This document shows positions 7,121-9,438 of a stretch of DNA of 64,000 bases, one piece after another; position 1 is the first letter of the stretch; the number at the start of each line of letters is the position of its first letter. The stretch is from Acidobacteriota bacterium. Its GTDB lineage: Bacteria > Acidobacteriota > UBA6911 > RPQK01 > JADFOI01. A model generated the notes under the pieces. The model saw only the letters and a list, made by a program, of their open reading frames with translations, was not told where the DNA came from and ran no database searches. The DNA is taken from NCBI GenBank assembly GCA_965218935.1, contig CBDCMH010000008.1, positions 117,229 to 181,228 of the forward strand, read 5' to 3'. The translations under genes and the position numbers were made by a program.

Positions 7121-9061
7121 ATGACGAGCAGACGTGATTTTCTCAAAGGAGTCGCGGCCGCCGGCACGCTGTCCGGACTCGCCCCGAAATCGGAAGCGCA
7201 AGCCGCGCCAGCCCAGACCCAAACGAGAGCTGCAGTGTCCGCCCTGCCGCCTTCGAGCTACGTGGAAGCGATGGAATCAGATGTGCCAGAAGGCTATACG
7301 GAAGCCAATGCCGCCCATTATTTCGTTAGGCACGCCGCTTCCGATTTCATGACCGATGTGATCAAGAGCCTCGGCATCGACTATGTGGCCTCCAACCCGG
7401 GCTCCAGCCACCGGGGACTGCAGGAGTCTCTCATCAACTACGGGGGGAATAGCCGGCCGGAGTGGCTGACCTGCCTTCATGAGGAATCCTCCGTGGCTAT
7501 AGGCCATGGCTACGCCAAGATCGCCTATAAGCCCATGGCTATGGCATGTCACAGCACGGTGGGCCTCCAGCACGCGTCCATGGCCATCTACAACGCCTAT
7601 TGCGACCGCGCACCTGTGATCATCTTCGGAGGGAATCACCTGGATGCTGCCGATCGCCGACCTGGAGCGGAATGGTCCCATGCGGCCCAGGATGCTGCCA
7701 AGCTGGTACGCGACTTCATCAAATGGGACGATACGCCCAACTCAATACCCCACTTCATGGAGTCGGTGATGCGCGCTTACAAGATCGCTACCACTCCTCC
7801 TATGGGACCGGTGGTGATTATTGTCGACGGCCATCTGCAGGAAAAGGAGTTAGGCGATGCGGTGCCGGCCATTCCTGATTTCGCGCCGACTACTCCGCCT
7901 CAGGGCGAGATGGGTGCCCTGCGCGAGGCTGCGCGGCTGCTGGTTAACGCCGAGCGTCCCGTGATTCTGGCCGACCGGATGGCACGTACACCGGCTGGAA
8001 TCAGCCGTCTTGTGGAGCTGGCCGAAGCGCTGCAAGCTCCGGTTGTGGATCGAGGGGGCCGCATGAACTTCCCCAACGATCACTATCTCGCTCAAGGGGG
8101 GCGCAGTGGGCGACTGATACGGGAGGCCGACGTGATCCTGGGGTTGGAGCTGTACGACTTCTGGGGTGCCGTAAACAGCATGCGCGATCTGGTACACCGC
8201 GAGACAACCAGCCGCACACGTTCTGACGCCAAACTCATCAGTCTCGGTGTCAATGACTTGTTTATCAAGTCGAACTATCAATCCTTTCAGCGTTACCAGC
8301 CCGTTGATCTTTCCATCGGCGGCGATGCCCAGGCAACCTTGCCCAGTTTGACCGAGGAAGTGCGCCGTGCCCTGTCAGCCGGACGTCGTTCCCAGATCGC
8401 TGGCCGAGAGCAAGAATTGAGGGAAGCCTATGTCAACATGATAGCTCAGTCGCGAAAACAGGCCACCTACGGGTGGAACGACAGCCCGGTCAGCACGGCC
8501 AGACTGACCATGGAACTCTGGCAGCAGATCAAGGACAGTGACTGGTCCCTGGTCTCCGGGAAATTGAGCGGTGTACCGCGACGTTTGTGGAAGATGAACC
8601 GGCATTACCAGTACATTGGCGGCTCGGGCGGCGCCGGGCAGGGCTATGGAGTGCCGTCGGCAGTGGGTGCCGCGCTGGCAAACCGCGAGCATGGTCGCCT
8701 TTCGGTCAGCATCCACGGGGACGGCGATCTGATGTATGCACCAGGCGTGTTTTGGACGGCGGCGCATCACGGCATTCCCCTGCTCTCAATTGTGCACAAC
8801 AACCGCGCCTATCATCAGGAGGTGATGCACCTGCAGCGTGTTGCTACACGGCGGCAGCGCGGTGCCGCTGGCTCTGCCAAGATCGGCAATACTTTTGAAG
8901 ATCCCTTTATTGAATACGCTGAGATGGCCAAGGGCCTGGGGGTCTGGGCCACAGGTCCCATCAGCGATCCGGCGGATCTGGCACCAGCGCTCAAACGAGC
9001 CGTCGATGTAGTGAAACGGGGCGAGCCTGCCCTCGTCGACGTCGTATGCCAGCCCCGATAA
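7121..9061 (+). CDS. Thiamine-diphosphate-dependent enzyme (ALS/benzoylformate decarboxylase fold) with twin-arginine signal
   Basis: SRRDFLK Tat motif, NPGSSH, conserved HEE, GDG...NN ThDP/Mg motif, AAGGAG RBS. Confidence 0.9.
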   Translation: MTSRRDFLKGVAAAGTLSGLAPKSEAQAAPAQTQTRAAVSALPPSSYVEAMESDVPEGYTEANAAHYFVRHAASDFMTDVIKSLGIDYVASNPGSSHRGLQESLINYGGNSRPEWLTCLHEESSVAIGHGYAKIAYKPMAMACHSTVGLQHASMAIYNAYCDRAPVIIFGGNHLDAADRRPGAEWSHAAQDAAKLVRDFIKWDDTPNSIPHFMESVMRAYKIATTPPMGPVVIIVDGHLQEKELGDAVPAIPDFAPTTPPQGEMGALREAARLLVNAERPVILADRMARTPAGISRLVELAEALQAPVVDRGGRMNFPNDHYLAQGGRSGRLIREADVILGLELYDFWGAVNSMRDLVHRETTSRTRSDAKLISLGVNDLFIKSNYQSFQRYQPVDLSIGGDAQATLPSLTEEVRRALSAGRRSQIAGREQELREAYVNMIAQSRKQATYGWNDSPVSTARLTMELWQQIKDSDWSLVSGKLSGVPRRLWKMNRHYQYIGGSGGAGQGYGVPSAVGAALANREHGRLSVSIHGDGDLMYAPGVFWTAAHHGIPLLSIVHNNRAYHQEVMHLQRVATRRQRGAAGSAKIGNTFEDPFIEYAEMAKGLGVWATGPISDPADLAPALKRAVDVVKRGEPALVDVVCQPR

Positions 9062-9072
9062 GGAGAACAGCC

Positions 9073-9438
9073 ATGCAGAGCAAGAATCGTCAAATTTCGA
9101 TTGCCTTCACTGTACTGACCCTGGTGGCCGGCATCAGTATCGGGGCCGCAGCCACACAAGAGGAGGAGGCTGCCGATCGTGGAAAGAAGGACTATGTCGA
9201 GATGGGCTGCTATCAGTGCCATGGCTATCAAGGCCATGGTGGAGCCGGCCCACTCATTGCGCCGGACCCTTTGCCTTTCGAGGCCTTCGCTGAAATCGTA
9301 CGAAGGCCCCCGAATGTCATGCCCGCCTATTCACCCAAGGTACTGAGCGACGAGCAGTTGAAGCGTATCCACGAATACCTGGAGTCGATCCCGCAGCCTC
9401 CCGACGTTTCTACCTTACCCCTCCTTACCGAGGAGTAG
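9073..9438 (+). CDS. Monoheme class I cytochrome c
   Basis: Sec signal, CYQCH, distal Met (VMPAY). The AAGGAG RBS overlaps the upstream stop codon. Confidence 0.9.
   Translation: MQSKNRQISIAFTVLTLVAGISIGAAATQEEEAADRGKKDYVEMGCYQCHGYQGHGGAGPLIAPDPLPFEAFAEIVRRPPNVMPAYSPKVLSDEQLKRIHEYLESIPQPPDVSTLPLLTEE

Follow-up and report, generated by a model that had tools for sequence, protein, structure and literature searches.

To our knowledge, every characterized ThDP enzyme of the decarboxylase fold is located in the cytoplasm or an organelle matrix. Positions 7121 to 9438 of the window (the whole stretch of DNA that was analyzed, 64,000 nt in length) raise the question of whether such an enzyme can be exported and can pass electrons to a cytochrome c encoded next to it. 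This region is a predicted two-gene operon for a ThDP enzyme and a cytochrome c. The ORF of the ThDP enzyme (7121-9061, + strand) encodes a three-domain protein of 646 aa, and the following translation sites were read from the sequence.

7107..7112, + strand: AAGGAG, ribosome-binding site for the ThDP enzyme, spaced 8 nt from the ATG at 7121
9059..9065, + strand: TAA stop of the ThDP gene, overlapping the AAGGAG of the cytochrome gene

An earlier examination made from the letters alone (referred to as the sequence-only reading) had placed the start of the cytochrome gene 11 bp downstream of the ThDP gene, with a ribosome-binding site overlapping the stop codon. This is the arrangement found: the TAA occupies 9059-9061, the AAGGAG occupies 9060-9065, and the ATG of the cytochrome gene lies at 9073, which leaves a gap of 11 nt. 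The overlap between stop codon and ribosome-binding site predicts translational coupling of the two genes. The ORF listing also contains a longer cytochrome ORF that begins at 9046. However, 9073 is the better start since both the ribosome-binding site and the signal peptide belong to it. A 205-nt contig from a sponge metatranscriptome is identical to positions 8128-8332, so the ThDP gene is probably transcribed. No Rfam match was obtained, and hence no TPP riboswitch was detected at the locus. A search for sigma-70-like sites found none, and terminator-like sites occurred at chance level. No paralogues were found in the 64,000-nt window. The genes flanking the pair in the window encode a PHP-domain protein, a small lipoprotein, an IS110 transposase, and an alpha/beta hydrolase, which are apparently unrelated to it.

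The N terminus of the ThDP enzyme, MTSRRDFLKGVAAAGTLSGLAPKSEAQA, displays all the features of a Tat substrate, namely, an S/T-R-R-x-F-L-K motif, a moderately hydrophobic h-region, and an AxA cleavage site. An extension specific to this family follows the signal.

7121..7201, + strand: Tat signal peptide (residues 1-27), with SRRDFLK, the h-region GVAAAGTLSGLA, and the cleavage motif AQA
7202..7336, + strand: residues 28-72, an N-terminal stretch of the mature protein that is specific to this family and carries the conserved motif PPS...AME

The perfect Tat motif SRRDFLK that had been noticed on the ThDP enzyme was confirmed. R4 and R5 were invariant in the aligned homologues (60/60), and the RR motif was present in 110 of 119 close homologues (58 to 87% identity), the nine exceptions being gene calls that were truncated or over-extended. 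At the level of genomic loci, RR was found in 75 of 80. Within the extension, P44 was conserved in 58/60 and E52 in 56/60 sequences, and residues 28-72 form the low-confidence part of the structural model (pLDDT, 30 to 71). On the basis of this signal, we predict that the ThDP enzyme is exported to the periplasm by the Tat pathway. According to a different explanation, the RR motif is a nonworking signal or an uncleaved membrane anchor, the enzyme is cytoplasmic or located at the inner membrane face, and its adjacency to the cytochrome gene reflects co-regulation only. The score against Pfam TAT_signal (PF10518), 18.9 bits, would agree with this explanation, as it is below the gathering score of 22.7 bits. 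Nevertheless, the full tripartite signal, consisting of an n-region that contains RRxFLK, an h-region of mild hydrophobicity, and a c-region of the AxA type, is retained over 50 to 87% sequence divergence, while the linker after the signal varies freely. Close cytoplasmic relatives lack the entire 70-residue extension; neither a signal peptide nor the N-terminal extension is present in them, and their alignment begins at residue 73. Moreover, the h-region is too polar for a membrane anchor. We consider the explanation by a nonworking signal or a membrane anchor to be very improbable.

The mature part of the ThDP enzyme comprises three domains, for which all three Pfam models (TPP_enzyme_N, TPP_enzyme_M, and TPP_enzyme_C) scored above their gathering scores.

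7337..7840, + strand: PYR (N-terminal ThDP-binding) domain, TPP_enzyme_N at residues 73-173, with S95, E121, H144, W185, and H187
7922..8347, + strand: middle (TH3) domain, TPP_enzyme_M at residues 268-409, with ILADRMARTPAG, H321, and N385-Y386-Q387
8558..9043, + strand: PP (C-terminal ThDP-binding) domain, TPP_enzyme_C at residues 480-641, with GDG-X24-NN (G533-N561)

By both its fold and its cofactor motifs, the enzyme belongs to the ThDP-dependent decarboxylase (POX/ALS/BFD) superfamily. The AF2 model (pLDDT, 84) gave Foldseek matches with a probability of 1.0 and TM-scores of 0.63 to 0.70 to GCL, BFD, BAL, and HACL. The sequence-only reading had described an ALS/BFD-fold ThDP enzyme with intact HEE and GDG..NN motifs, and all of these statements about the sequence hold. 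HEE corresponds to H120-E121-E122, in which E121, the cofactor-activating Glu, lies opposite E47 of BFD and is present in 60/60 sequences. G533-D534-G535 is followed, 24 residues on, by N560-N561, and D534, G535, N560, and N561 were found in 60/60 sequences. Most relatives have x-D-G-D, compared to G-D-G in the window enzyme.

The ThDP enzyme does not reach the cut-off of any curated family. The best match was PRK08327 (NCBIfam NF006203), with 252.1 bits against a cut-off of 456. The benzoylformate decarboxylase model (NCBIfam NF005485) gave 151.4 bits against 493, and pyruvate oxidase models gave 64 to 77 bits against cut-offs of 742 to 792. No names exist for the protein clusters of this family in the source databases, and its members commonly bear the wrong annotation "acetolactate synthase large subunit." A single scan across species-representative genomes yielded 433 confirmed stretches of the family. 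The family is testable at once, since carriers are available in culture (Caballeronia zhejiangensis, Burkholderia sp. SFA1, and Novosphingobium sp. KACC 22771).

BFD (MdlC, EC 4.1.1.7; 1BFD and 4Q9D) was the best sequence match in the PDB (E = 4e-28), at only about 20% identity. It shares the PYR/TH3/PP fold with the window enzyme, as do the flavin-free BAL and HACL, and has the same cofactor Glu, GDG-X24-NN motif, and catalytic Ser/His/His. S95, H144, and H321 take the positions of S26, H70, and H281 of BFD; of the 60 sequences, 57, 59, and 60, respectively, retain them. Together, fold and active site indicate an enzyme of the decarboxylase type. The substrate pocket is different. In BFD, L110, A460, L461, and F464 form a hydrophobic pocket for the phenyl ring, and these positions are occupied by H187, Q566, E567, and H570, all of which are conserved in the exported family. 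The PP domain contains a polar stretch (Y564-H565-Q566-E567...H570) and then a basic, family-specific loop (residues 571-590; pLDDT, 52 to 69). Judged from these substitutions, the pocket of the enzyme is predicted to be polar and His rich, unlike the phenyl pocket of BFD. Two further differences from BFD are the Tat signal with the 45-residue extension and the partner protein, which is a cytochrome c for the window enzyme and an NAD-dependent aldehyde dehydrogenase for BFD.

No Fe-S motifs were found in the ThDP enzyme, and a flavin is predicted to be absent as well. The opposite case would be an oxidoreductase with both flavin and ThDP, similar to pyruvate oxidase or cyclohexanedione hydrolase, in which electrons pass from ThDP to FAD and then to heme c, i.e., a flavocytochrome. 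Three observations are in line with such an enzyme. The top Foldseek match was the FAD-containing glyoxylate carboligase; the middle domain alone found the FAD-containing cyclohexane-1,2-dione hydrolase (CDH) as its best sequence match (E = 1.8e-4); and the family-specific residues N385-Y386-Q387, D337, and D356 of the middle domain are unusually conserved. However, the CDH loop ILAGGGVARSGG aligns with ILADRMARTPAG in the window enzyme, for which the family consensus is ADRxARTP. Side chains thus fill the loop position, and the Gly-rich flavin loop of CDH is absent, as in the flavin-free BFD and in yeast PDC, which likewise has a side-chain-filled loop and is flavin free. Furthermore, in whole-protein profile and PDB searches, the flavin-free BFD ranked far above POX/AHAS (151 bits, versus 77 bits for pyruvate oxidase). 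We therefore regard a flavin-containing enzyme as improbable. For the same reasons, i.e., the grouping with the flavin-free BFD type and the lack of a Gly-rich loop as in CDH, the comparison with pyruvate oxidase and its FAD route that had been drawn by the sequence-only reading is probably not apt.

The second gene encodes the candidate electron acceptor.

9073..9438, + strand: monoheme class I cytochrome c, 121 aa, with a Sec signal at residues 1-27 and a PF13442 match
9208-9222, + strand: heme motif C46-YQ-C49-H50 in the cytochrome c gene
9319-9321, + strand: distal ligand M83, in PPNVM83P, in the cytochrome c gene

The protein has the features of class I c-type cytochromes, namely, a Sec-type signal, a single CxxCH, and a distal Met, and it scored 45.8 bits against Pfam Cytochrome_CBB3 (PF13442; cut-off, 27). 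GCxxCHG and R-P-x3-MP-Y were found in at least 90% of the 58 adjacent homologues. In a PDB search, the best solved relative was PchC of p-cresol methylhydroxylase (1dii_C; E = 5e-7 over 72 residues). The two proteins show no conserved complementarity of charge: the cytochrome has a pI of 4.7 in the window, compared to a median of 8.9 elsewhere. Electrostatic docking of the enzyme and the cytochrome was rejected, the cytochrome being acidic here and basic in most relatives. No fusion of the enzyme with the cytochrome was seen among the best 120 matches to a chimeric query, each of which covered the enzyme part only. Multidomain cytochromes that were found separately were tandem heme, PKD, or cadherin proteins and not ThDP fusions. 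A natural fusion would be forbidden in any case, because the two proteins use different export routes.

The sequence-only reading had suggested checking for the co-occurrence of Tat-ThDP homologues and adjacent CxxCH genes, and this co-occurrence is clear across three phyla or classes. We compared 80 loci from Acidobacteriota, Gammaproteobacteria, and Alphaproteobacteria. In 58 of them, the ThDP gene was followed immediately, on the same strand, by a homologous cytochrome c gene, and the junctions were often overlapping or 3 to 15 nt long. In the remaining loci, the cytochrome gene was convergent (5/80) or within 2.5 kb (4/80), there was no room for it (3/80), or no cytochrome was present within 2.5 kb (10/80). 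When the labels were shuffled 500 times on the tree, no shuffle reached the observed degree of clustering, and the pairing of enzyme and cytochrome is beyond chance. Deep branches of the tree share the linkage, in Gamma- and Alphaproteobacteria as well as Acidobacteriota, and on this tree it looks ancestral. Besides the cytochrome, no further conserved neighbors were found among the loci. Occasional neighbors are periplasmic or outer membrane proteins (TonB-dependent receptors, PQQ dehydrogenase, and Mo-cofactor dehydrogenase), and the commonest extra neighbors are heterogeneous secreted acidobacterial proteins. Substrate assignment by gene context was rejected, as no further neighbor is conserved and the window flanks look unrelated.

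The nearest relatives of the enzyme are uncharacterized, cytoplasmic PRK08327-like "thiamine pyrophosphate-requiring proteins" (NF006203), which are 36 to 38% identical over residues 73-645; examples are encoded by plasmids in Acidovorax, Salipiger, Pacificitalea, and Phyllobacterium. Neither these proteins nor the window protein reach the PRK08327 cut-off of 456 bits. S95, H144, W185, H187, H321, and H570 are common to both groups, whereas the cytoplasmic relatives differ at T146, Q150, N172, H211, N385-Y386-Q387, H565, and E567, the positions that define the exported family. The neighbors of the cytoplasmic relatives encode aldehyde dehydrogenases, an alpha-hydroxy-acid oxidase, and carboxylate (TTT) transporters and include no cytochrome c. 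A 2-oxoacid decarboxylase followed by an aldehyde dehydrogenase is the classical gene layout. In the exported family, the cytochrome takes the place held by the aldehyde dehydrogenase in the cytoplasmic relatives.

A close parallel to the gene pair is p-cresol methylhydroxylase (PchF/PchC), which consists of a periplasmic catalytic subunit, whose cofactor is loaded in the cytoplasm, and a small, dedicated Sec-exported cytochrome c encoded adjacent to it. The pair has the gene features of such PCMH-type systems. In PchF/PchC-type enzymes, the catalytic cofactor is FAD or molybdopterin, as opposed to ThDP here, and the catalytic subunits are unrelated. The combination of a Tat-exported cofactor subunit with a Sec-exported cytochrome c is established in flavocytochrome c sulfide dehydrogenase and in SorAB.

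Alternatively, the enzyme could be a periplasmic nonoxidative ThDP decarboxylase, lyase, or carboligase that releases an aldehyde or ketone, the cytochrome serving an IorAB-type Mo-cofactor or PQQ-type dehydrogenase that oxidizes the product or acting as a general co-expressed electron carrier. Such an enzyme would suit the BFD catalytic triad, whose residues, with H321 as the enamine-protonating His, are conserved in 57 to 60 of 60 sequences. It would also suit the cytoplasmic relatives, which are apparently plain decarboxylases that feed aldehyde dehydrogenases. In BFD, H281, the residue opposite H321, protonates the enamine, and the retention of this His fits plain nonoxidative decarboxylation equally well. 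Mo-cofactor (8 genes in 7 loci) and PQQ (4 loci) dehydrogenase genes also lie near some pairs. On the other hand, these dehydrogenases are found in less than 10% of the loci, and none lies within 13 kb of the pair in the window. In addition, the cytochrome gene accompanies the ThDP gene in 58/80 loci, often at the short or overlapping junctions described above, and the cytochrome is most like a dedicated subunit, PchC. A nonoxidative enzyme seems unlikely to us.

We instead favor a Tat-exported ThDP enzyme that would decarboxylate 2-oxo acids and whose enamine would be oxidized by a dedicated cytochrome c, a proposal that we judge to stand at about an even chance. The sequence-only reading had proposed an extracytoplasmic, cytochrome-linked ThDP oxidative system of this kind; the conserved linkage speaks for that proposal, while its analogy to pyruvate oxidase probably does not carry over. 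An oxidative system gains further support because the cytochrome resembles PchC and because the relatives carry an aldehyde dehydrogenase instead. The proposed chemistry, oxidation of the ThDP enamine after decarboxylation of a 2-oxo acid, is the same as that of pyruvate oxidase/PoxB, the pyruvate/oxalate:ferredoxin oxidoreductases, and E1, and oxalate oxidoreductase and POX also oxidize the enamine without CoA. Known ThDP oxidoreductases are cytoplasmic or face the cytoplasm, unlike the predicted periplasmic window enzyme. Their built-in acceptors are FAD in pyruvate oxidase/PoxB, Fe-S in the pyruvate and oxalate:ferredoxin oxidoreductases, and lipoamide in 2-oxoacid dehydrogenase E1.

According to our model, the enzyme would fold in the cytoplasm and load ThDP and Mg2+ there. 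In the ThDP-decarboxylase fold, the cofactor lies at the interface of two subunits, and because of this position, Tat would export the enzyme at least as a dimer. The cytochrome c would be exported separately by Sec, with heme attachment in the periplasm. The substrate, presumably a polar 2-oxo acid, would probably enter through outer membrane receptors or arise in the periplasm from other dehydrogenases, and the enzyme would bind and decarboxylate it at the BFD-type Ser/His/His site. The periplasm lacks NAD(P)+. No aldehyde would be released to an NAD-dependent dehydrogenase; rather, the carbanion/enamine would reduce the dedicated cytochrome c in two one-electron steps, and the resulting acyl-ThDP would be hydrolyzed to the carboxylic acid. 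The net reaction would be R-CO-COO- + H2O + 2 cyt c(ox) -> R-COO- + CO2 + 2 H+ + 2 cyt c(red), after which the reduced cytochrome would deliver its electrons to a terminal oxidase. Formation of a complex between enzyme and cytochrome is predicted, as is the transfer of electrons from the ThDP enamine to heme. We know of no precedent for direct transfer from an enamine to heme c. A more specific version, a respiratory enzyme of the periplasm free of flavin and Fe-S whose ThDP enamine or radical the dedicated heme c would oxidize directly, is conceivable but, in our estimate, somewhat more apt to be wrong than right. A family-specific Tyr/His relay, e.g., Y386, H565, and H211, might perhaps serve such direct oxidation.

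Our literature search turned up no characterized member of the exported family, in agreement with the sequence-only reading, which knew of no characterized example; absence from the literature searched is not proof. The conserved pair points to a putative, undescribed periplasmic oxidizing enzyme. If the more specific version is true, the enzyme would rank as the first respiratory dehydrogenase in the periplasm to depend on ThDP. It would also represent a new enzyme class, 2-oxoacid:cytochrome c oxidoreductase, with heme c as a new class of electron acceptor for thiamine chemistry, and decarboxylation of 2-oxo acids would then conserve energy outside the cytoplasm with no need for NAD+, CoA, or lipoamide. 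A Tat-exported family linked to its own cytochrome c would, more generally, bring a new type of cofactor into the periplasmic respiratory dehydrogenases and reveal a new way to oxidize the ThDP enamine. Abundant soil, sediment, and sponge-associated bacteria (Acidobacteriota and Gamma- and Alphaproteobacteria) may then burn organic acids outside the cytoplasm in a manner that has gone unnoticed.

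The ThDP gene and the cytochrome gene follow one another in the window, with these features:

7121-9061, + strand: ThDP enzyme ORF (646 residues, N-terminus MTSRRDFLKGVAAAGTLSGLAPKSEAQA)
8 nt before the ORF start, + strand: AAGGAG ribosome site of the ThDP gene, read from the sequence
Residues 73-173, 268-409 and 480-641: N, M and C domains of the ThDP enzyme (Pfam)
Residues H120-E121-E122: HEE motif of the ThDP enzyme
Residues G533-D534-G535, then N560-N561 after 24 residues: GDG..NN motif of the ThDP enzyme
9059-9061, + strand: TAA stop of the ThDP gene, sharing bases with a second AAGGAG (9060-9065)
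9073-9438, + strand: cytochrome ORF (ATG at 9073; 121 residues)

The cytochrome has a Sec-type signal, a single CYQCH and the distal-Met motif PPNVMP, and it matched Cytochrome_CBB3 (Pfam) with 45.8 bits. On the ThDP enzyme, the Pfam match to TAT_signal was sub-threshold. The sequence-only reading had described a Tat signal, the HEE and GDG..NN motifs, a ribosome site overlapping the stop codon and a cytochrome, and each of these statements was correct. Neither gene has a second copy within the window, and no Rfam elements, TPP riboswitch included, were found around the operon.

We scanned one genome per prokaryotic species, which yielded 433 confirmed stretches, and retained 80 loci. Their hosts were Acidobacteriota (Vicinamibacterales, Terriglobia, and Bryobacterales), Gammaproteobacteria, and Alphaproteobacteria. 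In 58 of the 80 loci, the gene immediately downstream of the ThDP gene, with the same orientation, encoded a homologue of the window cytochrome. The cytochrome was adjacent but convergent in 5 loci and within about 2 kb in 4; 10 had none within 2.5 kb, and 3 ended too early for judgement. In a maximum-likelihood tree, the adjacent-cytochrome state spanned all deep branches, and the loci lacking a cytochrome fell inside derived acidobacterial clades. None of 500 label shuffles on this tree was as clustered as the observed pattern; the anticipated co-occurrence of Tat-ThDP homologues with adjacent cytochromes was thus borne out. The window enzyme belongs to a five-member acidobacterial clade (nearest member, 85% identity), all members of which carry the pair. 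No natural enzyme-cytochrome fusion was present among the best 120 matches to a chimeric query. Since c-type cytochromes receive their haem only following Sec export, the two proteins would not be expected to fuse, and the same requirement accounts for the two-gene layout of known dehydrogenases composed of a Tat subunit and a Sec cytochrome, which the ThDP-cytochrome pair shares.

Searching 5.8 billion proteins brought up over 100 full-length homologues of the ThDP enzyme (58-87% identity). An RRxF/L motif behind a short n-region was found in 110 of the 119 homologues listed, and the 9 without the RR motif were N-terminally truncated or over-extended gene calls. In an alignment of 60 sequences, R4 and R5 were invariant, whereas the linker after the signal varied freely. 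We are confident that the ThDP enzyme is truly conserved and exported, and that the cytochrome is its dedicated partner. In the decarboxylase fold, two subunits jointly form the ThDP site, one contributing its PYR domain and the other its PP domain. Because of this, the cofactor-loaded enzyme would be exported as at least a dimer (approximately 135 kDa), which would explain the use of Tat.

The cytochrome family comprised 743 cluster representatives at E <= 1e-10, tandem multi-haem forms among them. The motifs GCxxCHG and R-P-x3-M-P-x-Y were retained in at least 90% of the 58 adjacent partner cytochromes. The closest solved relative of the window cytochrome was PchC (1DII chain C; E = 5e-7, whole domain), followed by cytochrome c1-like subunits of actinobacterial bc complexes. 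PchC is the dedicated cytochrome subunit of periplasmic p-cresol methylhydroxylase and accepts electrons from its partner's catalytic cofactor. This kinship fits the electron-acceptor role proposed for the window cytochrome.

No curated NCBIfam family claimed the ThDP enzyme. The best model, PRK08327 ("thiamine pyrophosphate-requiring protein"), scored 252 bits versus a cut-off of 456, the second, benzoylformate decarboxylase (BFD), 151 versus 493, and pyruvate oxidase models 64 to 77 bits. The top PDB sequence matches were BFDs (4Q9D, 4e-28; 1BFD, 1e-21). An AlphaFold model (pLDDT 84, pTM 0.83) was about equally similar to glyoxylate carboligase, BFD, BbmA, benzaldehyde lyase, 2-hydroxyacyl-CoA lyases and AHAS, with TM-scores of 0.63 to 0.70 and 17 to 22% identity. 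The enzyme forms a branch of its own within the decarboxylase superfamily. Equivalences to BFD residues were taken from a HMMER alignment, and conservation was counted in 60 sequences:

BFD S26: window S95, conserved in 57 of 60
BFD E47: window E121, conserved in 60 of 60
BFD H70: window H144, conserved in 59 of 60
BFD H281: window H321, conserved in 60 of 60

With these four residues conserved, the BFD apparatus for 2-oxo-acid decarboxylation is retained. The residues that line the hydrophobic phenyl pocket of BFD (L110, A460, L461, and F464) align with H187, Q566, E567, and H570, each of them conserved among the exported enzymes. The pocket is therefore predicted to be polar and His-rich, and small or hydroxylated acids would fit it better than aromatic ones. 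Searched on its own, the middle domain had cyclohexane-1,2-dione hydrolase (CDH), a FAD enzyme, as its best match. The Gly-rich loop of CDH, ILAGGGVARSGG, corresponds to ILADRMARTPAG in the window enzyme (exported-family consensus, ADRxARTP), where it is occupied by side chains, as in flavin-free members. Consequently, the enzyme probably lacks FAD.

A tblastn search of annotated plasmids identified two groups of ThDP homologues. The signal-bearing, full-length group included proteins of Caballeronia zhejiangensis p3 and Burkholderia sp. SFA1 p4 (48% identity, N-terminus MTARRTFLK), in which a dihaem c-type cytochrome gene begins 8 nt after the ThDP gene; its first domain is homologous to the window cytochrome. 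These two species and Novosphingobium sp. KACC 22771 (gene order: ThDP enzyme, cytochrome c, cytochrome c, TonB-dependent receptor) were the three cultured carriers. In the two Burkholderiaceae, the plasmid-borne pairs (L082 in Caballeronia, L081 in Burkholderia) adjoin a cluster for a ring-hydroxylating dioxygenase (beta subunit, ferredoxin), and further neighbours encode a PdxA-like dehydrogenase, a reductase, an MHS-type transporter, a porin, and a citrate-synthase-like protein. A tie of this plasmid pair to aromatic-acid catabolism is possible.

Members of the second group (36-38% identity) begin at the equivalent of residue 73, without a signal. Gene orders were TTT-binding protein, ThDP enzyme, aldehyde dehydrogenase in Acidovorax; aldehyde dehydrogenase, ThDP enzyme, aldehyde dehydrogenase in Salipiger, with an alpha-hydroxy-acid oxidase alongside; aldolase, ThDP enzyme, TTT-binding protein, aldehyde dehydrogenase in Pacificitalea; and TTT transporter, ThDP enzyme, NAD(P) oxidoreductase in Phyllobacterium. 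This is the classical layout, known from the mandelate pathway, that leads from hydroxy acid through 2-oxo acid and aldehyde to the acid. The exported family, by contrast, lacks the NAD-dependent dehydrogenase and carries a cytochrome c instead. Such a swap would be expected if the oxidation step had moved onto cytochrome c, because the periplasm lacks NAD(P)+. The main rival explanation, that the enzyme is a plain periplasmic decarboxylase, we consider unlikely. Compared with only four cytoplasmic relatives, the exported enzymes differed from all of them at these positions, which are conserved within the exported family: T146, Q150, N172, H211, N385-Y386-Q387, F389, H565, E567 (Asp in the four), M569, Q572, and G581; these residues are candidates for a relay or docking surface.

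Other than the cytochrome, neighbours varied among loci. TonB-dependent receptors, MFS transporters, PQQ dehydrogenase, Mo-cofactor (IorB-like) dehydrogenase, amidohydrolases, and beta-propeller proteins recurred. Such neighbours fit a pathway that breaks down imported organic compounds in the periplasm, although they do not name a substrate. Some Gammaproteobacteria carry a second, distantly related Tat-signal ThDP paralogue. At locus L010 (4009-5907; also L008 and L021), it has its own signal (KISRRSFLAG) and lies directly upstream of the studied family member, and the two genes are flanked by TonB-dependent receptors, PQQ dehydrogenase, and amidohydrolases.

Several public metagenomic runs contained, at low depth, sequence nearly identical to window 6900-9600, and a 205-nt sponge metatranscriptome contig equalled window 8128-8332 with no mismatches. 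The latter is weak evidence that the ThDP gene is transcribed, and the organism is probably an acidobacterium that lives with sponges.

The window flanks appear unrelated to the pair. A small putative lipoprotein gene (6616-6999, - strand) lies between a PHP-domain gene and the ThDP operon. Segment 6617-6936, which holds it, runs in the opposite direction from its counterpart in two related acidobacterial MAG contigs (L001 and L002), where the gene is on the operon strand and the flanks are otherwise collinear (81-84% identity); a look for inverted repeats on either side gave none of note. An Amidohydro_3 protein (644 aa; 15538-17472, - strand) has an N-terminal signal-like sequence, and its relatives adjoin the pair in locus L030 (38% identity) and L010. 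It may be loosely associated in function with the pair, from which an IS110 element separates it; this IS110-family transposase (10816-11904) lies about 1.4 kb downstream of the cytochrome gene. An insertion sequence of about 1.5 kb, encoding a 416-aa integrase-core (rve) transposase, is present in three copies more than 99% identical (19852-21364, 59794-61306, and, reversed, 44229-45776, which aligns as two pieces about 130 nt apart). Finally, a very large ORF (2-4939, + strand; open 5' end, >1,645 aa) contains repeated GDFNGD...LDLAV (FG-GAP/VCBS-like) units, then YD/RHS repeats and an RHS-core-like end DPIGFAGGINLYAYVGNNPTNIVDPFGW, followed by a hydrophobic, Gly/Ala-rich C-terminal tail. 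Judged from its translation, it looks like a polymorphic-toxin-type RHS protein.

In the mechanism that we favor, electrons would pass from the ThDP enamine to the haem of the partner cytochrome. This step should be thermodynamically easy, since ThDP enamines reduce ferricyanide in many enzymes. No case is known to us in which haem c serves as their natural acceptor. No published description of an exported ThDP-cytochrome system was found in the literature searched. We give the proposed activity, cytochrome-c-linked oxidative decarboxylation, an even chance of being correct. The interpretation offered by the sequence-only reading is the best available one, with its biochemistry inferred. The pair would then represent a known kind of system, the two-subunit periplasmic dehydrogenase-cytochrome enzyme, in which the new element is an unprecedented ThDP catalytic subunit.
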